Below are positions 13,473 through 52,741 of a stretch of DNA of 64,000 bases, piece by piece. The first letter of the stretch is position 1. Each line of letters opens with the position of its first letter. The stretch covers positions 10,303 through 74,302 of the forward strand of contig CAYOJK010000010.1 in NCBI GenBank assembly GCA_964404285.1. Reading direction: 5' to 3'. A program made the position numbers and the translations under genes. The DNA is from an uncultured bacterium. Lineage in GTDB: Bacteria > CSSED10-310. The notes under the pieces are model-generated. The model was not told the origin of the DNA. It made no database searches and saw nothing but the letters and a program-made list of their open reading frames with translations.

Positions 13473-13575
13473 AAATCACCCATTTCTGCAATTTGGTTTG
13501 GGAATCGTGTCGTCAAAAAAACTACTTTTTACGCTTGTTTGGATGTTTGTCAGGGAAAGCTATTATCTAGCGACT

Positions 13576-13878
13576 TTAAGCTGCAACATCCTTGATCTCT
13601 ACTGCAAGTTTGAATCCCAGTGAATCAAGAAGCGCTTTTAAACTTGAAAATTGGGGATTGCCCTTCTTGGACAAGATTCTGTAGAGATTTTCCCGGTTTA
13701 GTGATGACTCATGAGCCAAGCGTGATATCCCTCTGGCTTCTGCAACATCACGCAGCGCCAATAAAAAAATCTCCTGAGAACCATCTTCTAGCGCTGCATT
13801 CAGATAGGCAACAGCTTCTTGGGGATCTTTAAGCGACAGCTTCAATCCATCCTCATATTTCACAAATGCTTTTCTCAT
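13576..13878 (-). CDS. Putative addiction-module antidote protein (HI1420/HigA-like Xre HTH antitoxin)
   Basis: 100 aa. LKDPQEAVAYLNAALEDG...FLLALRDVAEARGISRLA...LNRENLYRILS.KGNP.FSSL..LL..LG.KL is the typical pattern. AAGGAG ribosome-binding site upstream. Confidence 0.9.
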   Translation of the reverse strand: MRKAFVKYEDGLKLSLKDPQEAVAYLNAALEDGSQEIFLLALRDVAEARGISRLAHESSLNRENLYRILSKKGNPQFSSLKALLDSLGFKLAVEIKDVAA

Positions 13879-14013
13879 GACATTCTCCTTTTATAATCTT
13901 ACACGGATCCGTGCACGAAAAACGACATCATCAATATCTTTCAGCCATTCCCGAAAAGGGTTCACTCCATTTTCCGTTACATACTCGAACACCGTTTGCG
14001 GTACAGCTTCCAT
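13875..14013 (-). pseudogene. Internally deleted RelE/HigB-like (HI1419-type) addiction-module toxin
   Basis: Not in the ORF track. ATG at 14013 reads MEAVPQTVFEYVTENGVNPFREWLKDIDDVVFRARIRVRL* (40 aa, TAA at 13893-13891), the typical N-terminus of HI1419-type killer proteins. A C-terminal-like remnant DYKRRMS* follows in another frame, and its TGA overlaps the antitoxin ATG. Confidence 0.8.
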
Positions 14014-16735: not shown

Positions 16736-16974
16736 TCATATCAGAGAACAAATCTCAAGCATATTCTGACACTTCATCTTCAATTATTTGCCGATAGAGA
16801 ACATCTGATCGGTTGTTCTTATAACTATACCATATCAAATTTTGATTTTAAAACGTCTCTTTTATTGTTATTGAACATTTTCGATAGATAACAAATCTTT
16901 TAAATTTTCCAACTTGTGAGAAACACTGGAAAAAAACGTTTTGAATAGGATAATGTAAAAAGACGGGAGGACCT

Positions 16975-17397
16975 TTGGTGCGCAATACAGTATTTCGAGT
17001 AATCGCTATTCTGATTTCTGTTCTGACAGCTCTATTATTGACAGAAGCCCTTTTATGGCTTCTGTTTCCGCTGCCGTTCGGCAAAAGTGTTCGGGTGACC
17101 CTGGAACAAGATCTGCCAGGGTTATCTCCGGTCATAACCTATGATCGGAATGAAATCGGCTTACGATCCATCAGTATGCGTTCAAGGCAAAAACCCACGG
17201 ATACATTTCGAATTTTGTGCCTGGGCGCTTCGACAACCGATCAGCCGACACAAAACACGTCGGATACCTGGTCAGGCATCTTGGAAACCATGCTGAATCA
17301 AAGGTATGCCGATACAAAATACCACATCGAAGTCGGCGCATACGGACGGGGAGGCGATATAATTCTTCATCTTAAATGCCTATGCCTGTCGAAGTGA
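16975..17397 (+). pseudogene. Truncated membrane-anchored SGNH/GDSL hydrolase (N-terminal fragment only)
   Basis: TM helix, NEIGLR, block I RILCLGASTT and block II (VGAYGRGG), then an abrupt stop at 140 aa. Blocks III (GxND) and V (DxxH) are absent, and I saw no continuation in other frames. Confidence 0.7.
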
Positions 17398-17547
17398 AAA
17401 AGACGGCCACATGTATGTCGCGAAAATAGTGTTTCCCGTTGTAAGCGAAATGATAGATGCTGTTTTTATAAAAAAAGAAAACGTCACGCAATAAACGGGG
17501 TGGCATTGCTTAAAGAATGTTTCAATTATTGATTGATTTTATGAAGA

Positions 17548-19809
17548 TTACTCCACGTCAGGAGCATAACGTGGCGGCTTCGGCTCAAAGAATGTATTGA
17601 ATATTTTCAACAATCGCAGGATTTGCTTCGTGATCATCAAATAATTTCCAAGGATCGCGAAAAACAAAATATTCAACTGTGTTTTTGATTGTCCCGACCA
17701 AATACGCTCAACCTCAAATTCATTTAAAGTCTTAGCCAGTTTTTGCAGTTCCGAATACTTGTGAATCAACTTGTCCGGGCTGACTTTGCGCTTGCTGCTG
17801 AACGCTGTAATGACACTTTCAAATATCTGATCGACCTGGTTTTTGACTTTATTCAAATCCTCAATTTGAACAGGAGTAAAACCTTCATGTTGGTTGCTGA
17901 CATGCTTATGGGCCCGTGCAACGATATCACGGTGACCATCACTCAGTTTTTGTAGGCAGCGGACAGTTTGGCTGTATTCATAACTATATAGAGCATTTTC
18001 TTTCTGCAGAAGACGAAGAGCCTCAAAGACGTTGGCAGAAATAACATTGACCCATGATTGGATTTTTCTGACGTTTCGCCTTTCTTCGTTCAAGGCGATT
18101 TCCTGTTGCCTGAATAGCGCCGCCAAGGCGCTATTCAAGGAAAGTCGAACTTCCTGATGCAAATAACTCATCTGATGAAAAATCGTTGGAACGACGGCTT
18201 CGGCGCTGTTGATCGTTCCTAAGTTAAAAATCTGATTTTCTTCGAAAGAAGACTCTTTTTTTACGTGATGTCGATGGTTTTTCCATAGTATCAGCCCGGC
18301 AAGCAACAGTAATTGCGCAAGGCCGAAAAATTTGAAATTGAATAGGGTAGATGCAAATGCAAACGCAAATGAAGAGGCTAAGAGGGCGGTCAGGAACCAG
18401 CCGCCGATAACGGTCAAAACACCAGTGACACGATAAACGGCGCTTGCCCGGCCCCAGGCGCGATCGGCAAAGGATGATCCCATAGCGACCATAAACATGA
18501 CATAGGTGGTGGACAGCGGGAGCTTGTTGGATGTCGCATAAGATATAATGACACTTGATACCATCAGGTTGACCGAGGCGCGAACCAGATCGAAAGAATG
18601 TTGTCTTGTAAGGGTTCCGTCCCCAACAACCGTCGTATCTAGCCGTCGATCGACTTTCTGAAGCAATGAATCCGGCAGAATAAATTTGATCGTGTCAATA
18701 AAGCTGATGGACATCCTGACGATCGTACGAGCTAAAAGCGTCGATTCGGCATGCTCAAACCGTTCCGATTGACTGCTCAACCCTAACTCCGTCCGTGAAA
18801 GAGCCCGGGCTTTACTGGAAAACCACAGTGTCGCTACCATAATCGCGCCTGCGCCTATCAGAAGATACCATTCTGTTTGGAATGGGGCGCCAAGCTGTTC
18901 CATAGTGGCTGTCATTGGATTGGGTAAAGATTTGGCAATTTTCAATGAGTGAAAACCTGCTAATGGAACACCGATGAAATTGACCAAGTCATTAGCAGCA
19001 AATGACATAGCGATAGCAAACGTGCCAACCAAAATAACAGGTTTGAAAACATTGACTTTAAAGAAAATAAGACACTGAAGAATAAACCCGGAAGCAAGAG
19101 CCATGAAGAAAAGAATCGTCATGGTATTGGACTCAATCCAAGCAAGCCTTTCCGGAGTCACGAAAACAGATCCTCGAGTTCCCCTTATCAAGATAAAATA
19201 AGAGATAAAACTCAATGCGATTCCACCCCAAATCGCTCCATACCGTTTCATCCGGATGCGATAATCAAACGTGAAAATCATTCGAGTTATAAACTGAATA
19301 ATAGAGCCGGCAATAAATGCGATCAGGATCGACAACAAAATGCCCAGAATCATCGTGATGGCTTTGTTGGTATTGATGTATTGACCCAATAGAGCAAAAT
19401 CGCCGTTTTGCTTTTTGATTTTCCAGATCGATACGGCCACGGTTGAGCCGAGCAGTTCAAAAACGATCGAAACGGTTGTAGAGGTAGGAAGGCCGAATGT
19501 ATTGAACAAATCTAACAAGATAATATCCGAAATCATTACCGCTACAAACAATACAAGCAGCTCCGGCATTGTAAAAAATTCTGGATGAAAAACACCCTTT
19601 CGAGCGATTTCCATCATTCCGCTACTAAATGTGACGCCAGCAAATATGCCCAGGCTGGCAACCGTCATGACGACATAACGGGGGGCAGCTCGGGAACCAA
19701 TAGCGGCATTCATGAAATTGGCAGCGTCATTACCGATGCCGACAATCAGGTCTATAGACGCGAAAATCATTAAAAACGCAACTGTTGGATAAAAAAGCTC
19801 CAAACTCAT
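17548..19809 (-). CDS. PiT-family inorganic phosphate transporter, long form with a C-terminal PhoU-like helical domain
   Basis: 753 aa. PiT signatures GIGNDAANF and FAANDLVN, PTSTT and PLSTTY, about 12 TM helices, then a soluble helical C-terminal ~230 aa. Confidence 0.85.
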   Translation of the reverse strand: MSLELFYPTVAFLMIFASIDLIVGIGNDAANFMNAAIGSRAAPRYVVMTVASLGIFAGVTFSSGMMEIARKGVFHPEFFTMPELLVLFVAVMISDIILLDLFNTFGLPTSTTVSIVFELLGSTVAVSIWKIKKQNGDFALLGQYINTNKAITMILGILLSILIAFIAGSIIQFITRMIFTFDYRIRMKRYGAIWGGIALSFISYFILIRGTRGSVFVTPERLAWIESNTMTILFFMALASGFILQCLIFFKVNVFKPVILVGTFAIAMSFAANDLVNFIGVPLAGFHSLKIAKSLPNPMTATMEQLGAPFQTEWYLLIGAGAIMVATLWFSSKARALSRTELGLSSQSERFEHAESTLLARTIVRMSISFIDTIKFILPDSLLQKVDRRLDTTVVGDGTLTRQHSFDLVRASVNLMVSSVIISYATSNKLPLSTTYVMFMVAMGSSFADRAWGRASAVYRVTGVLTVIGGWFLTALLASSFAFAFASTLFNFKFFGLAQLLLLAGLILWKNHRHHVKKESSFEENQIFNLGTINSAEAVVPTIFHQMSYLHQEVRLSLNSALAALFRQQEIALNEERRNVRKIQSWVNVISANVFEALRLLQKENALYSYEYSQTVRCLQKLSDGHRDIVARAHKHVSNQHEGFTPVQIEDLNKVKNQVDQIFESVITAFSSKRKVSPDKLIHKYSELQKLAKTLNEFEVERIWSGQSKTQLNILFFAILGNYLMITKQILRLLKIFNTFFEPKPPRYAPDVE

Positions 19810-39541: not shown

Positions 39542-39742
39542 TTATCCCCCATGATGAATATGAATCGCACGAACCAAAGCATTATCCGGAACTAAATACG
39601 TATCATATTCGTTTTCGTTTACTAGCTGACCGTTTACAGTAACGATGATCAACACGTAAATGTATCCCATTTCATTTAAGACATCCCTAACCGTCATACC
39701 CGGTTTCCATTCCAGAACATCTCTGTTGTTAATGGTTATCAC
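39542..39742 (-). CDS. thiS: ThiS/MoaD-family ubiquitin-like sulfur carrier protein
   Basis: 66 aa beta-grasp-sized protein ending in IHHGG. GTG start overlaps the thiF stop (GTGA). Confidence 0.88.
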   Translation of the reverse strand: MITINNRDVLEWKPGMTVRDVLNEMGYIYVLIIVTVNGQLVNENEYDTYLVPDNALVRAIHIHHGG

Positions 39743-40344
39743 GTCGCTTTTCCTTCTAGGACCAATTGGATCACGGCATTTGCCTGCATAGCGGCTACAA
39801 TCATCACGCGCGGCGCCGTCATACCTATAGCCATGTCACTGACCATGTCGCCACATAGTACCAAGTTGCCGATTTTCTCTACCTGAAGTGTTCCTGAAGA
39901 GCCATAGCCGGCTAAACCATTTGCCGATATAAGTGGTCTTTGGGGAAATAGGCCGCACCATGTCTGAATTAACCAGATTTTGGATTCCGCTCGATCAAAC
40001 GCTTCAACCAGCATATCTGCTCCATTAAAAACTGAGGCCATGTTATGGCGATCCAAGGTGATATTATGAACATCAAGAGTAACCGATGAGTTAATTGTTT
40101 TGAGGTGTGCAGCCAGAGCTTCAGTTTTGGGCTTACCCAGATCGCTCAGAAAAAAATGTTGGCGGTTCAAATTGGAAGGCTCAACCACATCAAAATCTGC
40201 CAGAATCAGTTTTCCGATACCTGTCCGTGTCAGCATTACGGCCACATTGGAACCCAGGCCCCCGCACCCGGCAATGCCGACACATGCTTTCTGTAACCGT
40301 TCCAATATACCAGGAACATTTCGCTCAAAAATATCTTGGTTCAT
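39739..40344 (-). CDS. thiF: ThiF-family (E1-like) sulfur-carrier adenylyltransferase
   Basis: VGIAGCGGLGSN, ADFDVVEPSNLNRQ, VEAFDRAESK, LCGD...APRV. Confidence 0.9.
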   Translation of the reverse strand: MNQDIFERNVPGILERLQKACVGIAGCGGLGSNVAVMLTRTGIGKLILADFDVVEPSNLNRQHFFLSDLGKPKTEALAAHLKTINSSVTLDVHNITLDRHNMASVFNGADMLVEAFDRAESKIWLIQTWCGLFPQRPLISANGLAGYGSSGTLQVEKIGNLVLCGDMVSDMAIGMTAPRVMIVAAMQANAVIQLVLEGKAT

Positions 40345-40379
40345 GGTAATCGAGAAAAAAGAATCACCTTCACCCTATC

Positions 40380-42380
40380 TCAAGTTAAGGGGGTGTGATG
40401 GTCTTCAAGGACAGCGACAATTTCCGGTAAATCGATACCCAGCTCTTTTAGCCTTGCCTTTGTCGGCACTCCTTGTTGGTCCCAACCCCGTCGTCGATAG
40501 ACCACATCCAGTGTCTTCTCATATTGTTCTTCTCGGTATTCACGAATCAACGCCATTTTTTCTTCAACGGTTTTTCCCTCAGGATCAATGCCTAGGATTT
40601 CCTTTAGTTGCTTGTCATAGCGTTCCATCCGGCTTTCATATTCAACTTTAGTTACTGGCCCGATTCCTCGATACGGCATGTAATCCTCATTTCGTTGTCC
40701 TTTACCAAACATCAAACTCATGATGCGTTGCAGGTTGTGAACACGCGCGCTTTCTTCGAGCATACCGGCTTCATCCAATTTTCGACCCAGCATACCTTCG
40801 ACGAATTTGAAGTAATTTCTGACGTGATCAGGAACTTTCTGGGGTTCGGCTGTGAGCTTGTTATCGGCAGGGGTTACGTCGTTCCAGAGAAGTTTACACA
40901 GTCCATAAAGCCCAAACCACGTTCTCCACAGAGGAAAATAATACAGCGCTTCGGCTTTGTCTTCGTAAGTTGGAATCTCATTATTGACCATATCCATAAA
41001 AATGAGCCATGCTTCATCGTGCTGAGGGCCTTTTACCGCCATGCCATAACCGATTTGCTGGGCAATGGATTCTTTTGTCATGTATTCACTAACTTCCAGA
41101 CCTTTGACTTCCATACCGATATCTTGCAGAAACGCTTTTTGCTCAGTCGTCAGATTCAAGGTTTTACCCCAGTGATTTTTTAACCACCGAATTCCCATCC
41201 CGACATCTACGCCAAAGCCTTCACCGCGAGACATTTGATGCAAAAGCTCCAGCACGGAACCGGACTGACCGAAATGCAAGTCCATACCACCGGTGACAAC
41301 ATCATCAATAACACCGGCTTCATAAGCTTCCATGACAAAAGCGATAGTGGTTGCGGCGGAAATTGTGTCGACACCGTACGTGTCACAATAAAAGTTGAAT
41401 TCAGCGATGGCGTCCATATTGAACAGACCCATGTTAGAGCCACCGGCTGCGGTTTCATATTCCGGTCCTTCTACCGTCACGACATGACCCTTATAAGGGC
41501 CGGTTTTCAACGTGAAATTTTCAATGGTTTTAGCACAGGCCATTGTACAGCCTTTCCAGCATCCGTCCGGCATATTTTGAGTAAAGTATTTTTCTTTCAG
41601 AATACCACCATCGATTTTGTACACTTCTTCATGGGTTCCAAACCGATAATTCATGACAGGCAGCAAATCATAAGCATCCATAACTGCAACAATATTGGTC
41701 GTCCCAATTTCACGCATACGGCACTGATATTGATCGAGATTGGCCATTTCAGAGTTCACCTTCATTCCATAGTTTCTGATCAACATCGGGTTTATCGGAT
41801 TGTTCAAGTCATCAACAATATGCAAAGCGCCGGTCGGGCAAACATAGGCACAACTGGTACAGCCGATACAGTGGGGATCGACTTTTTGAAAAGGCATAGC
41901 AACATGGCGTTCGATTCCACGTCCGGCAAAATCAATAATGTGTTCTTGAGCGAATTCAGCACATGCTCGTATACAGTGTCCACACAATACACAAGATTTG
42001 GGATTTGAATCTGTCAATGGACTTGTAAAACGACTCTCTGATACACCACATTGCCGTGCAATTTTTTTGATTATTGGAACGTCGGGCCAACGTCCTAAAA
42101 GTAGTTCCACCAGCATTTTTCTGTGTTTTTTTACCGTGTCTGTATCTGTGTAAACTTTTATTGGTTTGTTAACAATATAATCACAGCTAGTGACCAGTTC
42201 ACGCTGACCGTCACACTCGATCTCAACCGAACACAGGCGGCAAGCGCCTTCCGGTTTCAGGTCTTTATGACTGCACAGTGTCGGAACAGTGATTTTTTGA
42301 TTGGTTAAAACCTTTAACAGAACAGTTCCAGCGTCAACTTGTATAGGTTTATCATTCACTAAAACATCGATTTTTGCCAT
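40380..42380 (-). CDS. Fusion: NuoG/HydA-like [2Fe-2S] plus 2x[4Fe-4S] module (aa 1-190) joined to aldehyde:ferredoxin oxidoreductase domains 2-3 (aa 191-666)
   Basis: C36/C47/C50/C66 (PTLC...GACRLC...TSC), C130xxC133xxC136xxxC140 and C171xxC174xxC177xxxC181P. Then AOR motifs GTT...LLPVMNY, GCWKGCTMAC, EGPEYET, CDTYGVDTIS, RGEGFG, VKGLE, YYRRGWD-like VYRRRGWDQQGVP. Confidence 0.88.
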   Translation of the reverse strand: MAKIDVLVNDKPIQVDAGTVLLKVLTNQKITVPTLCSHKDLKPEGACRLCSVEIECDGQRELVTSCDYIVNKPIKVYTDTDTVKKHRKMLVELLLGRWPDVPIIKKIARQCGVSESRFTSPLTDSNPKSCVLCGHCIRACAEFAQEHIIDFAGRGIERHVAMPFQKVDPHCIGCTSCAYVCPTGALHIVDDLNNPINPMLIRNYGMKVNSEMANLDQYQCRMREIGTTNIVAVMDAYDLLPVMNYRFGTHEEVYKIDGGILKEKYFTQNMPDGCWKGCTMACAKTIENFTLKTGPYKGHVVTVEGPEYETAAGGSNMGLFNMDAIAEFNFYCDTYGVDTISAATTIAFVMEAYEAGVIDDVVTGGMDLHFGQSGSVLELLHQMSRGEGFGVDVGMGIRWLKNHWGKTLNLTTEQKAFLQDIGMEVKGLEVSEYMTKESIAQQIGYGMAVKGPQHDEAWLIFMDMVNNEIPTYEDKAEALYYFPLWRTWFGLYGLCKLLWNDVTPADNKLTAEPQKVPDHVRNYFKFVEGMLGRKLDEAGMLEESARVHNLQRIMSLMFGKGQRNEDYMPYRGIGPVTKVEYESRMERYDKQLKEILGIDPEGKTVEEKMALIREYREEQYEKTLDVVYRRRGWDQQGVPTKARLKELGIDLPEIVAVLEDHHTPLT

Positions 42381-42382
42381 GA

Positions 42383-44758
42383 TTATTTATCCTCCTTTGT
42401 GTGTGAGGGGCATTGGCCAGTACGGACATGTGTCATGAAATCTTCATAAAAATAACGCAGTCCTGTCAGAATAGGATTCGGAGCCATTTTTCCAAAATGA
42501 CACAAGCTTGTTGCGGCAACGGTCTCAGCGAGCTCTTTAAGAGTTTCCAGATCTTCTATCGATCCTTTTTTGTCTTTAATTTTTGTCAGGATAGCAGCCA
42601 AATGCTGAAGACCTTCACGGCACGGTACACATTTGCCACAGCTTTCACCGGCTAGATATCGTGTGTAACTTTCAATCACTTCAACCATACAGGTTGACTG
42701 ATCTAAAACGGTTATATCGCCGGAGCCTATCGTGCTCCCAGCATCTGTCAAGGATTTGAAATCCAGCGGTATATTCAGTTTTGTCGCTGGTATAAAACCG
42801 CCGGACGGTCCCCCTATCAAAACCGCTTTTATCGATTTTCCTGTCTGAATACCCTTTCCCCAGGTATCCAAAACTGTCTGAAGAGGGGTGCCAAGAGACG
42901 CCTCAGCAAGGCCGGTTTGATTAAGCGCTCCTGAAATCATGAACACTTTTGTGCCGGCAGAAAAACCACTTTGCGGATTTAGAGATTTAAACCAGTCAGC
43001 TCCTTTTCGAACGATCGCTGGAATAGTAACCCATGTTTCTGCGTTGTTCAGAATTGTCGGCGCTTTTTTGAAACCTGATTCCAGGTGATTCAATGAGTTC
43101 AAATGGGGCTCACCCGGTCTTCCGGATATCGCCTCGATAACGGCTGATGGTTCACAATCGACTGCAGAACCGGGACCTCGATGTACAAAAAGATCAAATT
43201 TGAAATCCAATCCATCGATGGTATTACCCAGCCGCCCTTTTAAATACATTTTTTCGACCGCTTTATTCAGCTTATCAATCACTCGATGATATCGCTGATG
43301 GATATAAATATGTCCCTCGCTTGCACCAAGCGCATACGCCCCTAATATCAAGCCTTCGATGAGCCCATAAGGATCGTTTTCAACTATCGTGCTATCAATA
43401 CAGGCCCCGGGGCTGGTTTCCGTGATTGTGCAAATCACAACAGGTTGAACCATTTGGTTTTCTGCAGCAAGACGAGCAGTTTGCCAAGCTTGCCCGACAG
43501 AAATACCATTTCTCTCTCGCGCACGTAGGTTTGAATCTATTATGATTTGTCTTATCTGTTCCGATGTAACCGCTTTGAGGTTTTTTGCCAACCCCTGGCA
43601 AACCTCATCGAGTCTGATATCATCGTTATTCTGCTGTTGATCGGAGCCTGGTTTTCGCAGAGTAACCGATATTTTTCCGGGTAATATTCGTGCATCAGCG
43701 GCTGACGTTTCTGGATATTTGCTTATTTTATCGCGAGGTTCCAATGTGAAGGAGGGATAGAAGGTTGCGATGTGATAGAGATGTGATTTGGGTATACGGA
43801 TCAATTCATTTATTCCGTCGATAACTTCCTTTGAAATGAAGCCTTGTTGGTTTTGGGCATCCAGAAGCATATCCAATATAAATTCTTTTTTATTTTGCCA
43901 TTTAGCGACAATTTGATGGACATCTTGGATTGTGAGAGTTTTGGCTGCATCCGGTACATTGATTTTGAATTTATCAGCAAAGGGTTGCGCAGAAATTGAC
44001 CAAGCAGGTGTAAAATATTTGTTTTTTATGACAAGAGCTTTAATCTTTTTATTACGGAACACGGTTCCCAAGCCACCTCGGCCTGCCTGCTTGATCCGGG
44101 CGACTTTACGTCTCCAGTCATAAAACGAAAAATTCAAAACACCCATCCAAACATGGTCGGCTGCGCTGCCAGCGGTCACCACAGAGATGTTTCGTTTGTC
44201 TTCTTCGTTATCGGCATACATTTCCGTCAATTGTTCACAGATAATGTGGGCGTCCAGCGCTTCATCCGGCGCTTTTTCGATCGTGATCATCTGTTTGGGG
44301 ACATCGATGACGACGATGACTTCATCTTGAGCCTTTCCAGCAACAACCATGGCATCGAAGCCGGCAAATTTCAGGTATGGACCAAAATAGCCGCCGACAT
44401 TGGAATCCATGATGGATTGCGTTGCAGGCGATATCGATGTCACGATTGTTTTACCCGATCCCGGAAACGATGTCGTGCCGCCCAAAGGACCAGATGCTAG
44501 ACAGATCACGTTTTCCGGGCTGTCCCATTTGGTATCTTTGTTAATCTCTTGAAACATCAGCCAAAGGTCAAAACCTTTACCGCCAATCCACAAGTCTTTC
44601 ATTTGCTGGGTAACCGGAAGAATATCAATAGTTTTCTTTCCAAGTTCCACTCTCAGAACCCGGTCTGCATACCCGCGCATCAGCGTTCCAGGCTCATAGG
44701 CAAGTTCAGCTAGAACCGTATGTTTTTGACGCATTTGCTGGATAGGAGAATCCGACAT
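42383..44758 (-). CDS. Fusion: aldehyde:ferredoxin oxidoreductase domain 1 (aa ~30-247), NuoE N-terminal helical domain (aa ~278-342) and NuoF/HydB-like domain (aa ~385-785)
   Basis: AOR-N motifs WIGGKG, SPEN...SGPLGG, SISPAT...DSNVGGYFGPYLKFAGFD, QAGRGGLG.VF..K.IKALVI. NuoE-like LLDAQNQQGFI...IATFYPSFTLEPR. NuoF-like DPYGLIEG, NNAETW, GTKVF.ISG, IGGPSGG, ESCGKCVPCREG...SLCHFG. AAGGAGGT ribosome-binding site upstream. Confidence 0.88.
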   Translation of the reverse strand: MSDSPIQQMRQKHTVLAELAYEPGTLMRGYADRVLRVELGKKTIDILPVTQQMKDLWIGGKGFDLWLMFQEINKDTKWDSPENVICLASGPLGGTTSFPGSGKTIVTSISPATQSIMDSNVGGYFGPYLKFAGFDAMVVAGKAQDEVIVVIDVPKQMITIEKAPDEALDAHIICEQLTEMYADNEEDKRNISVVTAGSAADHVWMGVLNFSFYDWRRKVARIKQAGRGGLGTVFRNKKIKALVIKNKYFTPAWSISAQPFADKFKINVPDAAKTLTIQDVHQIVAKWQNKKEFILDMLLDAQNQQGFISKEVIDGINELIRIPKSHLYHIATFYPSFTLEPRDKISKYPETSAADARILPGKISVTLRKPGSDQQQNNDDIRLDEVCQGLAKNLKAVTSEQIRQIIIDSNLRARERNGISVGQAWQTARLAAENQMVQPVVICTITETSPGACIDSTIVENDPYGLIEGLILGAYALGASEGHIYIHQRYHRVIDKLNKAVEKMYLKGRLGNTIDGLDFKFDLFVHRGPGSAVDCEPSAVIEAISGRPGEPHLNSLNHLESGFKKAPTILNNAETWVTIPAIVRKGADWFKSLNPQSGFSAGTKVFMISGALNQTGLAEASLGTPLQTVLDTWGKGIQTGKSIKAVLIGGPSGGFIPATKLNIPLDFKSLTDAGSTIGSGDITVLDQSTCMVEVIESYTRYLAGESCGKCVPCREGLQHLAAILTKIKDKKGSIEDLETLKELAETVAATSLCHFGKMAPNPILTGLRYFYEDFMTHVRTGQCPSHTKEDK

Positions 44759-44980
44759 GTTTACCTCCTTGGTGAGTTATGCAATGAAAAAAGGATATGA
44801 AGCTTGCTGGTCACTTCAATATCGCCAAAAAAATGCTATTAAAAAAATAGTAATTAGTCAAAGCAGTAAATAGTAAGTATTTCTGAATGAAGGAGTAATT
44901 TTATTCTTGCTTTTTATAATCAAAACACTTTATATTCCCGTAAGTAACTGGGTATCAACTGTTAAAACAAGGGGGAAAAT

Positions 44981-46043: not shown

Positions 46044-46454
46044 ATGATTAAAATAACACGGTTTCTGCTAGTAGCTCTGTTGGTCTGCATGGGAAGCATA
46101 TCCGTTTACGGCGCTGATCAGGTAGAAAACACTGAAGAGCTGGAAGCGCCTGAAACGGCGCTTGAATTGTCTGAAGAAGTTGCACCGGATGCGGAAGAAC
46201 CCATTCAGGAAGCTGAACAGCTAATCGAAGATGCTGTTGAGCAAGTGGAAGAACAAAAAAAGGAAGATGTTGTACAAAAGGAACTTGATAAAGCCACCGC
46301 TAAAATAACTGATAAAGCCATTGAGACAGTTGAAGAAACAGTCGAAGATGCTGTTGAGACAGTTGAAGATGCTGTTGAGCAAGTAGAAGAAGCAGTGGAA
46401 GACGCCGTAGAAAAAGCGACTGACAAGGTTGCTGACGAACTTCCCATTAATTGA
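46044..46454 (+). CDS. Small secreted, highly acidic low-complexity protein with EDAVE(T/Q)V repeats
   Basis: Signal peptide, E/D/A/V-rich mature part. GAAGATGCTGTTGAG occurs at 46227, 46344 and 46365 (21-nt tandem unit). Confidence 0.8.
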   Translation: MIKITRFLLVALLVCMGSISVYGADQVENTEELEAPETALELSEEVAPDAEEPIQEAEQLIEDAVEQVEEQKKEDVVQKELDKATAKITDKAIETVEETVEDAVETVEDAVEQVEEAVEDAVEKATDKVADELPIN

Positions 46455-46614: not shown

Positions 46615-47310
46615 TTACGTCTTTATATCCTCAGAAATCTTACCATCTCGTAACGTAATCCGCCGCCGGGCATAAGCGGCGATATCATCTTCATGGGTCA
46701 CCAAGATGATCGTTTGCCCCTCTTTTTCCAGACCGATCAGGATATCCATAATTTCATAGCTTGTTTTCGTGTCCAGATTTCCTGTCGGTTCATCAGCAAG
46801 AATAACCGATGGGTGATTGACAAGAGCCCGGGCTATTGCAACACGCTGCTTTTCACCACCGCTCATCTCGCTCGGCCGGTGATGACCACGGCGACCAAGA
46901 CCAACCTTTTCCAGCATTTTTTCGGCTTGAGAGCGCCGTTCCTTTGGGCTCATCCCTGCATATACCAATGGAACTTCCACGTTTTCGCGAGCTGTCATAC
47001 GTGGTAAAAGGCTGAAGTTTTGAAAAACGAACCCTATACGCTGATTTCGTATCCGACTCAAGGCGCCGTCATCCAATCCGGATATGTTTTGACCGTCAAA
47101 AAGGTAATCACCTGAAGTCGGCTGGTCCAATCCTCCCAATATGTTCATCAATGTCGATTTACCGCTCCCCGACGGCCCCATGATGGCAACGAATTCATTG
47201 TGCTGAACCGTCAAATTGATATCGAATAGAACCTGCAAAGTCAGCGCTCCCATACGGTAAACCTTATTAATATTTTTTAATTCAATAACAGATTTGTTAC
47301 GGTTACTCAT
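46615..47310 (-). CDS. ABC transporter ATP-binding protein, MacB/LolD-type
   Basis: Walker A GPSGSGKST, signature MSGGEKQRVAIARAL, ILADEPTGNLD, VTHE. Likely start 47310 (ORF track start 47325). Confidence 0.95.
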   Translation of the reverse strand: MSNRNKSVIELKNINKVYRMGALTLQVLFDINLTVQHNEFVAIMGPSGSGKSTLMNILGGLDQPTSGDYLFDGQNISGLDDGALSRIRNQRIGFVFQNFSLLPRMTARENVEVPLVYAGMSPKERRSQAEKMLEKVGLGRRGHHRPSEMSGGEKQRVAIARALVNHPSVILADEPTGNLDTKTSYEIMDILIGLEKEGQTIILVTHEDDIAAYARRRITLRDGKISEDIKT

Positions 47311-48547
47311 AACGCAACGCCTCAATCGGGTTCAGGCCGGCAGCTCTTCGAGCCGGGAAAAAGCCGGCCGCCACGCCGACTGTGCCTGCAACCATAACAC
47401 TCATAACCACCGCCCCGAGCGAAAAAATCGTTTTCCAGCCGGCATAGTGAGATATGACGGCTCCTAATGAGAATCCCGTCACGATACCGAAGACACCGCC
47501 AACAAGGCTCAAGACGACGGCTTCCAGAAGAAACTGTGCCAGTATATCGTTTCGGGTGGCGCCTAAAGCACGGCGTATGCCGATTTCGCGAGTGCGTTGA
47601 GTGACGCCGGCCAGCATGATATTCATGATGCCGATACCACCGACTAACAATGATATGGCGGCAATTGCAGCCAACACCATGTTGAAGCGCCGTTGAGTTG
47701 CCAGGGCCTCCCGAAGCAAATCCAGCGGCACAACCATATCGTAATCGTTCACATTGTTATGCATGCGTTTCAAAATCGTATCGATTAAATCTGCTGCCTG
47801 CTTGACAGTGTTTCGATCAGATGCCTGTACGACAAGCTCAGACAGTTCGTGATGAGTGGCTGTATCTGAAATTCGGCGGCCGACAACACTTAACGGCACA
47901 TAGATATCCCGATTGAGATTTCTCATGCTGATCGCAGATGTGCCGGCTTCCGCTAACCGTTTATCTTCCATTATACCAATAACGGAAAACATCGAATCAC
48001 CAATTTGAAACCATTTACCAGAGACTTGCTGCCAGGGCGCTGAGCCGAAGATTTCCTGATGGATTTCCGCTCCAATAACACATACGGGTTGCGCGGTTTC
48101 CATGTCCATTTCGGCTAGAAAACGACCCTTCGCCGAATGAAAGTTCATAACAGCTACATAATCCGGTGTTGCCCCGATTACGGCTGCATTCACCGTGCGG
48201 CCTTCAAAAACGGGTTTTTCCACAAGTTCTTTCACGGGAGCCATCCGCTCGACAAATGGGCAGTTCGCTTCAATTGCCGTCATATCCATCCGCGCTAATC
48301 CTTTTGGATTCTGTTGAATCGCAGTAATCCGTTCGTGTCCGGAAAGGTCAACAGCCTGGATACGGATATTGGTCAATCCTAATTGCGACACCTGCTCCAT
48401 GGCCTGCTGTTTGGCGCCTTCGCCGATAGCCACGCTGGCAATGACGGCGGCCACGCCGAAAATAACGCCCAACATCGTCAAAAACGAGCCCAACTTGTTG
48501 TTGCGCATTTCCAGCAATCCAATTTTGATGGTTTGGCCTAATAGCAT
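47303..48547 (-). CDS. MacB/FtsX-family ABC transporter permease
   Basis: SFLTMLGVIFGVAAVIA, large periplasmic domain, ISLLVGGIGIMNIMLA.VTQRTREIGIRRALGA, FFPARRAA.LNPIEALRYE. Confidence 0.95.
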   Translation of the reverse strand: MLLGQTIKIGLLEMRNNKLGSFLTMLGVIFGVAAVIASVAIGEGAKQQAMEQVSQLGLTNIRIQAVDLSGHERITAIQQNPKGLARMDMTAIEANCPFVERMAPVKELVEKPVFEGRTVNAAVIGATPDYVAVMNFHSAKGRFLAEMDMETAQPVCVIGAEIHQEIFGSAPWQQVSGKWFQIGDSMFSVIGIMEDKRLAEAGTSAISMRNLNRDIYVPLSVVGRRISDTATHHELSELVVQASDRNTVKQAADLIDTILKRMHNNVNDYDMVVPLDLLREALATQRRFNMVLAAIAAISLLVGGIGIMNIMLAGVTQRTREIGIRRALGATRNDILAQFLLEAVVLSLVGGVFGIVTGFSLGAVISHYAGWKTIFSLGAVVMSVMVAGTVGVAAGFFPARRAAGLNPIEALRYE

Positions 48548-48550
48548 TCG

Positions 48551-49894
48551 CTAAAATCCTTTATCGTTTATCCCTGATTCCGGAGCTGTTTTCGCCGCTA
48601 AGCTAAATAAAGCGACTCTCATTCCAGGTTCTAAACCATGAGTAACAACCGCTTCTAAACGATTCCGCGGGCCGAGCTCGATCGGGCGATACGTGAAGCG
48701 ACCGTTTTTATAGACAAACACATGCGAGCCGGACTGGTCATGCCCGATGGCGCTGATCGGAATGGTCAATACATCCGATATACGCTCTTCGACAAATACA
48801 ACCGATACATTCATGCCGGTCCGAAGTCGTTCATCTTGTGTTGTCAGTCGAACAGCTATTTCAAAAACCTTCCCATGAGAATTATCGCCGTCAGCTCCTG
48901 TATAAACTGTTCCACGACTTTGTCCTCTTGGCATCGCCAGCCAACTTATTGAATCGACCACACCTTCCAAGACGGCATTCTCCAGTGCCGGGACGCGTAT
49001 CCAAACCGGTTGGTCTTCAAATACTCTACCTAAATGAGCTTCGGATACCTGTGTCCAAATCATCATTTCAGACATATCCGGTATTTCCAAAAGTGTCGTC
49101 CCAGAACCGACGCTATCCCCAACTTTGAACGGCTCTTTGTTCCACTGGCGTCTGATAATGACAATACCATCCGCCGCGGCATAACCAACGTGATAACCTA
49201 GATACTTCTCATAAAACGCTTTCAAAGCGCTACTTTGCTCATAGTCATGACGAGCAATTTCCGATTCGAGCTCGACACTCTTCCGACGGGATTCATATTC
49301 CAGTTCAGCTCGTTCCAAAGCCAGTCGAGAAGCCGTTTCCGTCAATCGCAATTGTTCCAATCGCGCTTCAGTGTCAAGCACCTCTGTTTCAGATATCAAC
49401 TGTCGAGCAAATCGATCTCGAAGCTGCTCCAGTTCCCGTTCTATGCGTTCGACATTCAGCTTGTCAAAAGCATAAACCGCGGTTGTTTCCTTAAGCGCCT
49501 GTTCCAGGTTGAATTTTTCTTCTGCAAGAGCTTCAACAGCCCGCTCATAATTCGAAAGTGTCTGACGCAGCTTGATCGTTGTCTTTTCGATCAACTGCTC
49601 CATATTTTCAGTATCGAGCCAGAAGACCGGATCACCCTTTCGGACAAATGAGCCTTCCGGCGCCAATCGTGCGATTTTACCTCTTGTCACCGTCGATACT
49701 GTTGCATTGCGAACGGCTTTGAGCAGACCGACATCATCGATCCCAGAAACGAATACACCTTGTTGAACACGCACGGTATCGGAATCAGGTGGCGGAGCCA
49801 GGGGGTGCGGTCGAGAGCAGGCTCCAAGCAACACAAACAGGCCTCCAGCAACCATGTTAAGGACGAAGATGTTTTTATTGGCTTGTCGACTCAT
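48551..49894 (-). CDS. Periplasmic adaptor (MacA/HlyD-family membrane fusion protein) 2, lipoprotein-like
   Basis: Lipobox LLGAC, lipoyl halves (GKIARLAPEGSFVRKGDP, VGDSVGSG..LLEIPD), long alpha-hairpin, beta-barrel and MP domains. Confidence 0.88.
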   Translation of the reverse strand: MSRQANKNIFVLNMVAGGLFVLLGACSRPHPLAPPPDSDTVRVQQGVFVSGIDDVGLLKAVRNATVSTVTRGKIARLAPEGSFVRKGDPVFWLDTENMEQLIEKTTIKLRQTLSNYERAVEALAEEKFNLEQALKETTAVYAFDKLNVERIERELEQLRDRFARQLISETEVLDTEARLEQLRLTETASRLALERAELEYESRRKSVELESEIARHDYEQSSALKAFYEKYLGYHVGYAAADGIVIIRRQWNKEPFKVGDSVGSGTTLLEIPDMSEMMIWTQVSEAHLGRVFEDQPVWIRVPALENAVLEGVVDSISWLAMPRGQSRGTVYTGADGDNSHGKVFEIAVRLTTQDERLRTGMNVSVVFVEERISDVLTIPISAIGHDQSGSHVFVYKNGRFTYRPIELGPRNRLEAVVTHGLEPGMRVALFSLAAKTAPESGINDKGF

Positions 49895-49905
49895 TGTAAA
49901 CTCAA

Positions 49906-51201
49906 TTACAAACTATCAGGACGCGTCAACAAAATTCGTTGTCCTGGCTGAACACCCTCGTGTATTACAATATATTGGGCGTTCCAAGCGCCGGTTTTAA
50001 CCATTTGTTTTTCAGCCCCCCCCAAACCAGCCAAATAGACGATTCGATTTTCACCATCGGTAAAAACAGAGTCTATCGGCACATAAATATTATTATCCGA
50101 TTCGTATAATAACACAGCGACTCTAGCAGTGATTCCCGGACGCAGATCGTCCGGATTATCCGAAATGCGGACACTGACCTCAAAAACCTTACGACCACCG
50201 CCGCTATCTCGATTTCTAGGCTCGCGCGAGGAGGGAGCTTCGTCGGCCAGAGCTGCAATTTTGTGTATGTCTCCGTGTAGTACAAGACTCGGAAAGGCGT
50301 CCAGATATATCTTTGCCGTTTGATTTTCTTTCACACGAGAAATATCGACTTCGTCAACAAAAGCAATGGCCTCTAATTCGGATAGATCAGGGATTTCAAG
50401 AAACGGCTGCCAGGGCCCGACCTGATCGCCGATAGCTACTTTTTCCGTGTTACCTCCACCTTTCCAAACATTTTTATACATAACCATACCGGACGTAGGG
50501 GCTCGTATTATCGCTTCATTCAAGTTTGTTTGAACTTTTGTCAGCTCCGCCTGATTTTGGTCAACTTCGATGGAGGCCGTCGTCACATCCGCTTTTTGAA
50601 GTTCACGTTGAGATTCCCGGTTTTTTAGCGCTTTTTCGAGCGCCAGAGTGGCATTTTCCACTTGAAGAGTCTGGCTTAAAACTTCCAATTCGGCATCATC
50701 GAGCGCTTTTCGGGGAGAAATATCGGCATCGACTAAACGTTGCGTTTTCTCCAGACGTGATCGTGCCGCTGCGAGCTGGGTTCGTTGATGTTCCAAGCGC
50801 GATTTGGCTTCCTCGATCGCTAGAAGGTTCAAGCGGTCTTGTAGCTGAGCGTTCTCTTCAGCCTTGAGCAATTTTTTTTTCGCGATTTCCAACGCATTCA
50901 CCATCTGCTCTACGTCCTCTTCCAACTCCTCGGTTTCAAACCAACAGATCGGTTGGCCTTTTTCGACAATAGAGCCTTCCGGAATGAGATTCGCTATTTT
51001 TCCATACGTGCGTGGCGTGATATTGGTTGAATTGACCGCACGAATTTCACCGATCAGCATCAATTCCGACTTAAACGGGCCTTCCTGGACAGTCACAACG
51101 ATATCACCGGGAATGATGGCGCGTCTGCTGAATTTCAAGCCGATCACAAAAAGCACAACCAAACCGATACCGATCAATACCCACCGTTTTTTATTCGTCA
51201 T
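49906..51201 (-). CDS. Periplasmic adaptor (MacA/HlyD-family membrane fusion protein) 1
   Basis: N-terminal TM anchor, GKIANLIPEGSIVEKGQ, IRAPTSGMV, VDEVDISRVKENQ, LRPGITARV. Likely start 51201 (ORF track start 51243). Confidence 0.9.
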   Translation of the reverse strand: MTNKKRWVLIGIGLVVLFVIGLKFSRRAIIPGDIVVTVQEGPFKSELMLIGEIRAVNSTNITPRTYGKIANLIPEGSIVEKGQPICWFETEELEEDVEQMVNALEIAKKKLLKAEENAQLQDRLNLLAIEEAKSRLEHQRTQLAAARSRLEKTQRLVDADISPRKALDDAELEVLSQTLQVENATLALEKALKNRESQRELQKADVTTASIEVDQNQAELTKVQTNLNEAIIRAPTSGMVMYKNVWKGGGNTEKVAIGDQVGPWQPFLEIPDLSELEAIAFVDEVDISRVKENQTAKIYLDAFPSLVLHGDIHKIAALADEAPSSREPRNRDSGGGRKVFEVSVRISDNPDDLRPGITARVAVLLYESDNNIYVPIDSVFTDGENRIVYLAGLGGAEKQMVKTGAWNAQYIVIHEGVQPGQRILLTRPDSL

Positions 51202-52741
51202 TCCTATTGTCTCCACTGTGTCTATTAATCGGGTTATCTTCATGCTGTGTTGTATATGACTGATCTGAAGAATGAGGATTCAAACGCAGGTTTTCCGGAT
51301 CGAGGTCACGACCTAAAGCATGAATGATCCGTGCTTTTGCCACTGCCAAATCCAAAATATCGGAATAATAATTATTGCCCGCATCGATTAAGTCATCCTG
51401 AGAACGAATCAGGTCCAAATTTCCAGTCAACCCTTCCTGGTAACTCTGGCCTGCCAACTGAAAATTCATTTCAGCAACAGCCAGCGCTTTTTCAGATACT
51501 TTCAACGCCTCCACAAGCGCCTGATAGTGGCGAATTTCATCGCGAACATCTTTTTCAACCGCAAGACCGGCGTTCATCAGGTTGTTTTCCAGTTTTTTCA
51601 ATCGTATCCGAGCCTGATTCCAGTTTTCTCTGTTTGTTCTGTCCCCTAACACATACGAAAATCCAATGCGAATCGAACGGGTATCATCGTCAAATCGAAA
51701 GCTATCACCAAACCTGTCGCTCCGTTGAACAGATTCAGCATTTAAAAGCAAATCCAAAGCCGGCAACCGCTGGTTCATAGCATGGGTCACCGCTATTTCT
51801 GCGCTGAAAATATCGTTTTTCAAAATGCGCAGATCGAGTCTTTGTTCCAAAGCTTCATCGATGGCGGCGTCGAGTGATATTTCTTCAGGAATATGCTCCG
51901 GCGCATCGGCAAACACCAAAGAGCTATCCAATGGAATACTCAGGGTGAGTTTTAATGAATCAACCTGTGATGCGGCAGCCTGTTGAATCCGAATGAGCGT
52001 GGTCTGCTGGCGTGCCAGTTGCAGCTCCGCCTGAGACACATCCATCTGTGCAACCAGCCCTTCCTCTAGCTTGATCTGGGAGTTTTTCAAGTGCACCATA
52101 GCATCTTCTACGCCACGCAAAGCAACCTCTACCAGTTTTTCCTGTTTTAAAGCAGTAAAATACTGAATGATGACATCCAGAATCAGTCGTCTTTGAGCTT
52201 GAACAAATCGAAAACGCGCGTTTTCTCGTGCCAATCGGTTCTGCCTGACCGTAATATGATCACCCCATAAACCGGCATTTTTCAAAAGCGGCTGCTGAAA
52301 TCGTAAACCTAACGTATTTGAATAAATTCCATAATCACTATCGAAATATTCATCGTATCTACTTTCACTCTCATCATAGCGAATTACATTCGAATATAGT
52401 GACAGAGAACCGCCACTCGTGCTGAACTGTTTGCTGATATCCGCGCGAAAGTGATCATTACGGGAAGATTCATCTGTGTTATCACCGTTATCGATCTGAG
52501 TATGGACAGAATCGGCTTCAAAGGACAGGCGTGGGAAATACGGCGCCATTCCAGACCGATAGACCGACTCGTTTAATTCCAGATCCAACCCATCATTCTG
52601 AAAATCGAAATTGTTTTCCAGAGCCAATTTAACGGCATCCGACAATGCCAACGGGCGTGATTGGGATTCGGAAAAACAGCGAGTGGTGAGAAGCTCACAA
52701 ATAAACAATAAGGAAAGAATATACTTTTTGGAGATTTTCAT
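51191..52741 (-). CDS. TolC-family outer membrane efflux protein
   Basis: Signal peptide, LSDAVKLALENN, two OEP repeats (QPLLKNAG...YF.AL; QRLPALDL...SYQEGL...LDL). First gene of the exporter operon. Confidence 0.9.
   Translation of the reverse strand: MKISKKYILSLLFICELLTTRCFSESQSRPLALSDAVKLALENNFDFQNDGLDLELNESVYRSGMAPYFPRLSFEADSVHTQIDNGDNTDESSRNDHFRADISKQFSTSGGSLSLYSNVIRYDESESRYDEYFDSDYGIYSNTLGLRFQQPLLKNAGLWGDHITVRQNRLARENARFRFVQAQRRLILDVIIQYFTALKQEKLVEVALRGVEDAMVHLKNSQIKLEEGLVAQMDVSQAELQLARQQTTLIRIQQAAASQVDSLKLTLSIPLDSSLVFADAPEHIPEEISLDAAIDEALEQRLDLRILKNDIFSAEIAVTHAMNQRLPALDLLLNAESVQRSDRFGDSFRFDDDTRSIRIGFSYVLGDRTNRENWNQARIRLKKLENNLMNAGLAVEKDVRDEIRHYQALVEALKVSEKALAVAEMNFQLAGQSYQEGLTGNLDLIRSQDDLIDAGNNYYSDILDLAVAKARIIHALGRDLDPENLRLNPHSSDQSYTTQHEDNPINRHSGDNRNDE

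Follow-up and report, generated by a model that had tools for sequence, protein, structure and literature searches.

The closest characterized system to the one described here is WorABCSL of Acetomicrobium mobile (PDB 9mqx), in which electrons pass from the tungsten site through the WorL [4Fe-4S] cluster and then along A4, A2, A1 and B1 to flavin mononucleotide (FMN), where the pair is divided between NAD+ and, through C1/B3/B4, ferredoxin (PMC12318220). In the 2022 Bfu survey, the bifurcating core is defined as a BfuB subunit with FMN and B1–B5 together with a BfuC subunit with C1, and term searches of that survey turned up Wor-Bfu enzymes of Synergistetes and Firmicutes, always with the ABCSL subunits separate (PMC9304861). 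A 2026 classification of tungsten oxidoreductases (WOR) selected only proteins with both WorL domains (PMC13328260). Here we examine a locus that departs from these descriptions, in a stretch of 64,000 nucleotides (“the window”) from an uncultured bacterium of the lineage CSSED10-310 (contig CAYOJK010000010.1). Two adjacent genes of the window appear to encode a two-polypeptide tungsten aldehyde oxidoreductase, composed of a WorL-dom1–BfuC'–BfuB' chain (gene 1) and a BfuA'–WorL-dom2/3 chain (gene 2). The NuoF-like (BfuB-like) domain of the gene 1 protein has lost most of the residues that contact FMN and NADH, and it has kept its fold, its four [4Fe-4S] cysteines and the signature of purifying selection. 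The reading we favor, with about even confidence, is that this domain serves as a flavin-free scaffold on which an Fe-S side branch has been kept, the enzyme itself having given up the use of NAD(H).

The gene 1 protein carries the Pfam domains AFOR_N, 2Fe-2S_thioredx (partial), Complex1_51K and NADH_4Fe-4S (Table 1). Its first ~250 residues align to residues 3–209 of Pyrococcus furiosus aldehyde oxidoreductase (AOR), and in a phmmer search against the PDB the protein matches the HydB/BfuB chains 8a6t_B, 7t2r_B and 9mqx_B at E values of 1e-94 to 1e-98. An initial annotation of this DNA, made from the sequence alone, had described three FMN/NADH motifs of the module as degenerate, and our alignments bear this out. 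In the translation of the open reading frame (ORF), LRARERNGISVG stands at residues 411–422, TITETSPG at 444–451 and GPGSAVDCEPSAV at 528–540, and the phmmer alignments to BfuB/HydB chains place the three strings gaplessly opposite lrgrggagfptg, icngdegdpga and egagafvcgestal. A fourth motif, not covered by that annotation, is lost as well: P-R-x-K-P-P-[FY]-P, which serves the adenine and pyrophosphate of NADH, has become P-H-L-N-S-L-N-H (aa 551–558). The adenine pocket differs throughout the split family to which the protein belongs (see below), canonical long forms included, with R-A-K-Y-[VI]-H-N-V in place of the R-x-K-P-P-[FY]-P of NuoF/HydB (columns of aa 552–559, 43082–43105). This change, common to the whole family, appears to predate the loss in the window protein.

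We then mapped 23 contact positions, comprising the NADH/FMN contacts listed for Aquifex aeolicus NuoF (PMC9299107) and the canonical FMN contacts of the same motifs. Fourteen of them are replaced in the window protein. In Aquifex numbering, the replacements in the FMN loop are G65→A, G67→E, G68→R, A69→N, F71→I and K76→A (A424 here), those in the NADE motif are N92→T, D94→T and E97→S, and the others are Y180→A, G183→C, E185→P, K202→N and Y205→N. All phosphate-loop glycines but one are gone, the loop reading A-R-E-R-N-G-I against a canonical G-R-G-G-A/G-G-F. Eleven of the 14 replaced positions are 100% conserved across 90 long relatives of the protein. A test that makes no assumption about contacts gave a similar picture. 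Alignment of 104 canonical NuoF/HydB representatives yielded 79 columns conserved at ≥85%, of which the window protein keeps 61 and loses 18, and 12 of the 18 lost columns lie inside the four ligand-motif windows (Fisher p = 1.8e-4). The losses concentrate on the ligand site beyond chance. The Complex1_51K score is 67.9 bits, compared with 135–150 bits in relatives with intact motifs, and the NCBIfam model TIGR01959 (nuoF_fam) gives 324.8 bits, below its cut-off of 558.65. As a NuoF module, therefore, the protein has the fold and the four N3/B1 cysteines, and it lacks the FMN loop with Lys76, the NADH contacts and a score at the family cut-off. With Glu, Arg and Asn side chains in the FMN phosphate loop and without the nucleotide contacts, proteins of the window clade would bind neither flavin nor NAD(P)H.

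The cluster-binding part of the module is preserved. The cysteines C707, C710, C713 and C753 and the GGPSGG motif (aa 649–654), which the initial annotation had called intact, are all found in the ORF translation, the first three within CGKCVPC (aa 707–713) and the last within TSLCHFG. A 46-sequence alignment shows no variation at C707, C710 and C753 and ≥90% conservation at C713. An AlphaFold2 model, whose input was a 46-sequence alignment, has a mean predicted local distance difference test score (pLDDT) of 83, and values in the NuoF-like part are mostly >85. The predicted model contains the NuoF three-domain fold (Rossmann-like, ubiquitin-like/SLBB and four-helix bundle), and in Foldseek it superposes on NfnB, HydB and WorB chains with a root-mean-square deviation (rmsd) of ~2 Å over ~400 columns and a template modeling score, TM(target), of 0.6–0.9. 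Two further absences had been claimed, and both hold. The NuoE part has no [2Fe-2S] cysteines: only the start of the Pfam model is matched (Table 1), and not a single Cys occurs between C174 and C387 of the 791 residues, hence no [2Fe-2S] ligands. What remains of NuoE are helices predicted with pLDDT 82–94 (aa 277–333), and 43930, the start coordinate given in the initial annotation, corresponds to aa 277, where this remnant begins. A C-terminal ferredoxin domain is missing too, since the protein stops 7 residues past GQCP (aa 781–784). Measured against the Bfu core, the window protein has B1 only, with B5, B3, B4 and C1 absent; an N-terminal thioredoxin-like domain with cysteines is likewise missing. 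Together with the 14 replaced contacts, these absent cluster domains agree with the earlier suggestion that neither a standard diaphorase nor a bifurcating unit is a likely role for the module.

The genomic context, which lay outside the initial annotation, points to a split tungsten oxidoreductase. WorL is cut exactly at the boundary of domains 1 and 2 (equivalent to residues 210–240 of P. furiosus AOR), with a BfuC-BfuB / BfuA cassette in the gap, in frame on both sides. Gene 2 begins three bases downstream of gene 1. Its N-terminus holds the [2Fe-2S] A1 ligands C36/47/50/66 and two [4Fe-4S] A2/A4 sites (C130–140 and C171–181; CxxCxxCxxxC), and the His/Cys motif of the A3 cluster is absent, as in WorA. 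The presence of A1, A2 and A4 and the absence of A3 and A5 correspond to the Type 2 BfuA pattern. The best PDB relatives of gene 2 are 9mqx_A WorA (2.5e-33) for the N-terminus and 9mqx_D WorL for AFOR_C. The latter part retains the catalytic and pterin-site residues known from P. furiosus AOR: alignment to that enzyme recovers the equivalents of Thr243 and Glu313, and the equivalent of His448 (in GPQHDEAW) falls opposite a histidine of P. furiosus FOR chain 1b25. The four cysteines of the WorL [4Fe-4S] cluster are C274, C278, C282 and C495. Across the partner subunits compared, those of the window, L006, L001, L007 (from a second degenerate clade) and L004 (a long form), no cysteine of A1, A2, A4 or the WorL cluster is lost. 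The WorL cluster motif itself, CWKGCTMAC (41535–41561, aa 274–282), is spaced C-x3-C-x3-C rather than C-x2-C-x3-C as in P. furiosus AOR, and this one-residue insertion is conserved across all aligned partner subunits.

A ThiF-family gene and a small ThiS/MoaD-like gene complete the operon (Table 1), and the 66-aa ThiS-like gene is found at the same place in all related loci. Genes of the ThiF/ThiS type are known to accompany WOR genes (PMC13328260). From the residue conservation and these accompanying genes, we infer that the enzyme binds a tungsten-bis-pyranopterin and oxidizes aldehydes. The definition of WorL as one polypeptide with IPR013983/PF02730 and IPR001203/PF01314 (PMC13328260) does not describe this locus, where both domains are present on two adjacent polypeptides. 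No added flavoprotein or ferredoxin gene was found near degenerate forms; the operon consists of these four genes in the long, short and degenerate loci examined.

To assess constraint on the altered domain, we calculated the ratio of nonsynonymous to synonymous substitutions (dN/dS, or omega) by the Nei-Gojobori method between the window and an 83%-identical orthologue, L001 (dS ~0.9–1.0; Table 1). The NuoF-like part has a dN/dS of 0.11 over ~400 codons at dS ~1, with no stops or frameshifts, and the WorL catalytic part is the most constrained region of the operon proteins compared. The initial annotation had proposed asking whether orthologues share the substitutions under purifying selection. 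Close orthologues do so (dN/dS ~0.11), an outcome that favors the interpretation given there: the substitutions of the window protein recur in orthologues at 95% and 83% identity, and the length of 791 aa is retained down to 58% identity. We also compared protein divergence in the NuoF-like part with that in WorL domain 1. This rate ratio is 0.88 among long forms, 1.7 among short forms with an intact loop, 2.0 among short forms in which the loop is lost, and 2.9 between the window protein and its orthologue. Taken together, the rates and the dN/dS values fit a loss of catalysis with structural constraint kept, and they do not fit decay.

An exact copy of the sequence is present in at least 20 DNA runs, which belong to ~10 studies and come from bioreactor, anaerobic digester and wastewater metagenomes. 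Evidence that the operon is transcribed is weak but positive: in each of two metatranscriptomes, part of the NuoF-like region is matched by an identical contig, and a third RNA-labelled run spans most of the operon. In an RNA-labelled biogas-fermenter run (X25; 39885–44938), contigs of a second strain, 95–99% identical across the operon, were found beside identical ones; close strains therefore co-occur in digesters.

In a homologue search, all 120 listed clusters at 90% identity carry the split-WorL/Bfu fusion. Their hosts are Krumholzibacteriota, Eisenbacteria, Aminicenantes/Acidobacteriota and unclassified digester or wastewater bacteria. At 50% identity the family collapses to two or three clusters, and the remaining representatives are ordinary HydB/NuoF proteins, which supplied the canonical reference set. 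Long forms (90 clusters, ≥900 aa, mostly ~1060–1130 aa) contain WorL domain 1, a full BfuC-like part with its [2Fe-2S] cluster, a second thioredoxin-like domain (B5), the FMN domain, B1 and a C-terminal 2x[4Fe-4S] domain. The long relative P0017, for instance, has the full B1–B5 set of BfuB-type domains. Long forms thus hold the complete core that the Bfu survey defines as bifurcating (PMC9304861). Short forms (31 sequences including the window protein, ~770–830 aa) lack the BfuC [2Fe-2S] part, B5 and the C-terminal ferredoxin domain. The FMN loop is destroyed in 15 of the 31 short forms and in none of the 90 long forms, a raw count that ignores kinship; every long form retains the glycine loop and the Lys. 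The lost loops differ in sequence, with A-R-E-R-N-G in the window clade, D-R-D-D-D-G in P0004, and, in a second degenerate clade (P0055, P0081, P0102, P0104, P0112, P0114–P0120), a one-residue deletion with S/C/L/D substitutions (as in GRSCGS-). Other short forms (P0005–7, P0016 and the P0038 group) have intact FMN residues. A different alteration is seen in relatives that retain the FMN glycine loop, long forms included: the NADE(G)DPG motif is deleted by 4–6 residues (NS------, NI----SG, NA----AG) in P0058, P0095, P0096, P0107 and P0108, in P0033 and P0085, and in P0008, P0018, P0047, P0068, P0084 and P0113. Nucleotide binding or specificity may be altered in these relatives despite an intact-looking flavin site.

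We placed these forms on a neighbor-joining (NJ) tree of WorL domain 1 (~220 columns), rooted on unsplit WorL outgroups. The split family is monophyletic in this tree. The window clade, (P0002,(Q,P0001)) with Q the window protein, adjoins P0003/P0004 and P0005–7, the last with canonical FMN residues, and the second degenerate clade branches within the long forms. Because of these positions of the degenerate clades, the family appears to have undergone at least three independent losses of the FMN loop and at least two truncations. A midpoint-rooted NJ tree of whole proteins put the short forms basal, a placement that we distrust, given the faster evolution of the NuoF-like domain in these forms. 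At one locus the split occurs unfused: a gene of 264 aa encodes WorL domain 1 by itself (P0133; L089:5001–6090), 59% identical to aa 6–257 of the window protein, and two bases downstream lies a separate full NuoE-like gene with a CxxxxC [2Fe-2S] motif. Splitting of WorL and fusion to BfuC/B are therefore separable events. At the P0005 locus (L008:9388–11386), the partner gene consists of two overlapping ORFs of 584 and 85 aa, both AFOR_C, which indicates that the reading frame shifts late in WorL domain 3, either from an assembly error or in a broken gene.

By analogy with A. mobile WorABCSL, for whose mechanism they possess all the parts, long forms probably couple aldehyde oxidation to the reduction of NAD+ and ferredoxin. 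The short forms with intact FMN residues resemble non-bifurcating NuoF homologues, in which B1 and FMN stand alone (PMC9304861), and are probably NAD-linked. The window lineage would first have lost the bifurcation-specific cluster domains C1, B5, B3 and B4, and its BfuB-like domain would afterwards have lost the residues that bind FMN and NADH. In the window clade the electron chain would then end at B1. The NuoF-NuoG-type interface and the helical remnant of NuoE would tie the two polypeptides, and hence both WorL halves, together. With each half of WorL tied to one side of the interface, the NuoF-like domain could not be lost without separating the halves, and this dependence would account for purifying selection on a domain that has no cofactor site. 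The B1 [4Fe-4S] cluster, beside the A1 [2Fe-2S] cluster of the partner, would be a side branch with a structural role, or with no more than that of storing electrons. Electrons would exit to a ferredoxin-type acceptor by way of the WorL, A4 and A2 clusters, and the enzyme would not react with NAD(P).

Several observations weigh against this scaffold reading. Seven contact equivalents are retained (G70, E95, D103, E184, N219, N220 and T223), and the motif windows, 85% identical between the window and L001, are at least as constrained as the remaining domain, so that a specific residual function of the pocket may persist. The comparison of 15/31 short with 0/90 long forms takes no account of phylogeny. 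The NJ trees come from short alignments, and it is the NuoE remnant, in the face of a root that is not robust, that sets the polarity in clade A as truncation and not as an ancestrally short state. Finally, none of the degenerate lineages has changed its A1 or B1 ligands, a pattern that fits a productive path through B1 equally well.

Such a path is the basis of a reading in which the module is a flavin-less Fe-S wire, conducting from W-pterin through the WorL [4Fe-4S] cluster, A4, A2, A1 and B1 to ferredoxin or flavodoxin, which as an external acceptor of single electrons would dock at the mouth of the former NADH channel. In its favor, the full A1–B1 ligand set is unchanged in all independently degenerate lineages, the missing A3 branch cluster leaves A1/B1 as the sole continuation beyond A2 (PMC12318220), the omega of the BfuA-like part is 0.04 and that of the B1 domain 0.09, and the former pocket residues are conserved within the window clade. 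We nevertheless consider the wire possible rather than probable. The loop residues are chemically opposite between clades (E-R-N; D-D-D in P0004; a deletion in clade B), so that the docking surfaces show no convergence, and acidic ferredoxins would be repelled by D-D-D. Complex I cluster N7 is an example of a conserved cluster without productive electrons. Non-productive Fe-S clusters are often kept for stability, as in the “evolutionarily remnant” A5 clusters of BfuA subunits, which are connected only to A4 (PMC12318220), and the constraint on the NuoF-like domain as a whole is relaxed. The same chemical differences among independent losses argue against one convergent new docking or ligand site, and because of them we favor the scaffold over both the wire and a re-purposed pocket. 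Wire, scaffold and new ligand are the three options that the initial annotation had offered, and sequence alone separates them only in part.

Re-purposing of the former flavin pocket for another ligand or a metal has a candidate site in E415/R416/N417, C453, D534 and C535, near the canonical C443. The motif windows have an omega of ~0.05 against 0.12 for the rest of the domain, and the pocket contains two cysteines that are missing from canonical proteins, C453 in place of F/Y, which also occurs in P0003, and C535 in place of G183. However, the difference in constraint is not significant (46/54 vs 269/341 identical residues), C535 is confined to one shallow clade (Q/P0001/P0002) and the other degenerate clades show unrelated substitutions, two or three cysteines would be insufficient for a cluster, and the operon is without accessory genes, so that we regard this as decidedly unlikely. 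A related proposal, in which the pocket has been rebuilt (E415-R416-N417, C453, D534-C535) as a ligand or metal site or as a docking port through which B1 delivers electrons to an acceptor other than NAD(H), we likewise think unlikely; if true, this would be the first NuoF-type module with a flavin-independent redox role, a rebuilt pocket inside a split family that spans bifurcating, NAD-linked and flavin-free forms. Continued action of the domain as a diaphorase, with flavin or NAD(P)H bound in some non-canonical mode, is very improbable. The equivalents of N219/N220/T223, E184, E95 and D103 and the overall fold are kept, as this would need, but Glu, Arg and Asn occupy the phosphate-binding glycine loop, K76, N92, Y180, G183, E185, K202 and the adenine-stacking residues are all replaced, and the nuoF_fam and Complex1_51K scores are low. 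Neutral decay of a dispensable domain would explain why the rate of the NuoF-like domain, scaled to that of the WorL part, is 2–3 times the rate seen in long forms. Decay and artefact together seem scarcely credible to us: a pseudogene was rejected on the dN/dS of 0.11 at dS ~1, the constant length, the lack of stops and frameshifts and the confident predicted fold, and an assembly or sequencing artefact on the identical sequence in at least 20 runs, with pieces in metatranscriptomes.

Table 1. Features of the split tungsten oxidoreductase operon. Coordinates are positions in the window; dN/dS is against the orthologue L001.
Feature	Residues	Coordinates	Strand	dN/dS	Remarks
Gene 1	791 aa	42383..44758	minus	0.11	WorL domain 1 + BfuC(NuoE) helical N-terminal remnant + BfuB(NuoF)-like domain without FMN/NADH motifs
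AFOR_N = WorL domain 1	27-250	44009..44680	minus	0.055	Pfam E 2e-47
NuoE/BfuC four-helix N-terminal remnant	277-344	43727..43930	minus		without [2Fe-2S] domain; Pfam model positions 2-65 of 145
NuoF-like Rossmann-type (former FMN) domain	391-585	43004..43588	minus	0.12	Complex1_51K 67.9 bits; pLDDT mostly >85
Degenerate FMN-phosphate glycine loop and lost Lys	411-425	43484..43528	minus		LRARERNGISVGQAW; canonical LRGRGGAGFPTGxKW
Degenerate NADE(G/S)(D/E)PG motif	444-456	43391..43429	minus		TITETSPGACIDS; alignment to canonical chains
Degenerate GAGAYICGEETAL motif	528-540	43139..43177	minus		reads GPGSAVDCEPSAV; alignment to canonical chains
Degenerate adenine/pyrophosphate motif	549-559	43082..43114	minus		GEPHLNSLNHL; canonical G-x-P-R-x-K-P-P-F/Y-P
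Four degenerate motif windows combined				~0.05	
Ubiquitin-like (SLBB) domain				0.09	
Four-helix [4Fe-4S] (N3/B1) domain	691-785	42404..42688	minus	0.09	Pfam NADH_4Fe-4S E 1.5e-27; ligands C707, C710, C713, C753
Gene 2	666 aa	40380..42380	minus		BfuA/WorA-like N-terminus fused to WorL domains 2-3
BfuA-like part of gene 2				0.04	
WorL domains 2-3 of gene 2 (AFOR_C)	206-649			0.03	Pfam E 4e-90
ThiF-family adenylyltransferase, third operon gene		39739..40344	minus		conserved in L001, L004, L006, L007, L008
ThiS/MoaD-like ORF ending GG, fourth operon gene	66 aa	39542..39742	minus		GTG start overlaps thiF end

The WOR operon is adjoined by an ABC efflux operon of the MacB type (OEP, two YknX-type adaptors, MacB permease and ATPase; 46615–52741, minus strand), which is syntenic in the 83%-identical relative (L001:300–6419) and partly so in a 55%-identical relative (L008:1–2400). 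Two small ORFs separate the two operons. A 136-aa ORF at 46044–46454 (plus strand) has a signal-peptide-like N-terminus and a highly acidic, repetitive body rich in E/V/A/D (VEEAVEDAVE-type). No Rfam hit at the gathering threshold, such as a riboswitch for the molybdenum or tungsten cofactor (Moco/Wco), was obtained across the whole window. The G+C content is lower at 12001–14000 (0.39) and 16001–18000 (0.42) than elsewhere in the window (0.45–0.50).

In the searchable literature we found no description of a split or fused WOR-Bfu enzyme or of a NuoF domain without FMN. Term searches of the 2022 Bfu survey did not find the split family (PMC9304861), and the 2026 WOR classification cannot contain it, because both domains were required in one protein. 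A split WorL with an inserted Bfu module defines a sizeable unclassified family of putative tungsten enzymes. The family forms a natural deletion series, from the full core, through forms without C1/B5/B3/B4, to forms without FMN. The role of the flavin and its neighboring clusters in Bfu-type bifurcation is debated, and these natural variants could serve as ready-made controls. For the window clade, the current product names “NADH:ubiquinone oxidoreductase subunit F (NADH-binding)” and “NAD(P)H-dependent oxidoreductase subunit E” are probably wrong.

Like WorABCSL of A. mobile, the window system comprises a WorL tungstopterin subunit, a NuoG-like WorA with A1, A2 and A4 and without A3, a NuoF-like WorB and a NuoE-like WorC, and the NuoF-like part of the predicted model superposes on WorB at 1.7 Å. 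In contrast to WorABCSL, its WorL is split over two polypeptides and fused to Bfu parts, the WorS polyferredoxin is absent, the WorC-like part is reduced to the helical N-terminus with no C1, and the WorB-like part is without B5, B3, B4 and the FMN/NADH site. Unsplit counterparts are the WorSL-type tungsten oxidoreductases of Clostridia, such as that of Sedimentibacter saalensis DSM 13558 (L052), whose domain 1 is 58% identical to aa 6–245 of the window protein and has the same N-terminal extension. Unlike the window system, the S. saalensis WorL is a single polypeptide of 718 aa with a separate 144-aa WorS polyferredoxin, and it has no Bfu parts.

Non-bifurcating homologues of NuoF have the B1/N3 cluster only and none of B2–B5, according to the Bfu survey (PMC9304861). 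The window domain resembles Nqo1/NuoF of complex I, FdsB of NAD-dependent formate dehydrogenase, HoxF and the HydB homologue of the non-bifurcating Syntrophomonas wolfei FeFe-hydrogenase in having B1/N3 alone on the same fold. Those proteins bind FMN and oxidize NADH, whereas the window protein has lost the residues needed. A parallel in this respect is NqrA of Na+-NQR, a structural subunit without cofactors that descends from RnfC, an FMN/NAD subunit, and whose substitution rate is raised (PMC4014512). In both cases a Complex1_51K-type module has lost its flavin and substrate sites and kept its fold; in NqrA the loss followed a change of electron partner, and the module was kept since it was structurally needed. 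The locus may document, with selection data, a catalytic redox module in the course of turning structural, an intermediate comparable to the transition from RnfC to NqrA. Unlike NqrA, whose Fe-S cysteines are gone, the window protein keeps all of its [4Fe-4S] ligands. By this comparison, the window domain looks like an earlier or arrested stage, or like a domain with a residual role in electron transfer, rather than a member of the NqrA type.

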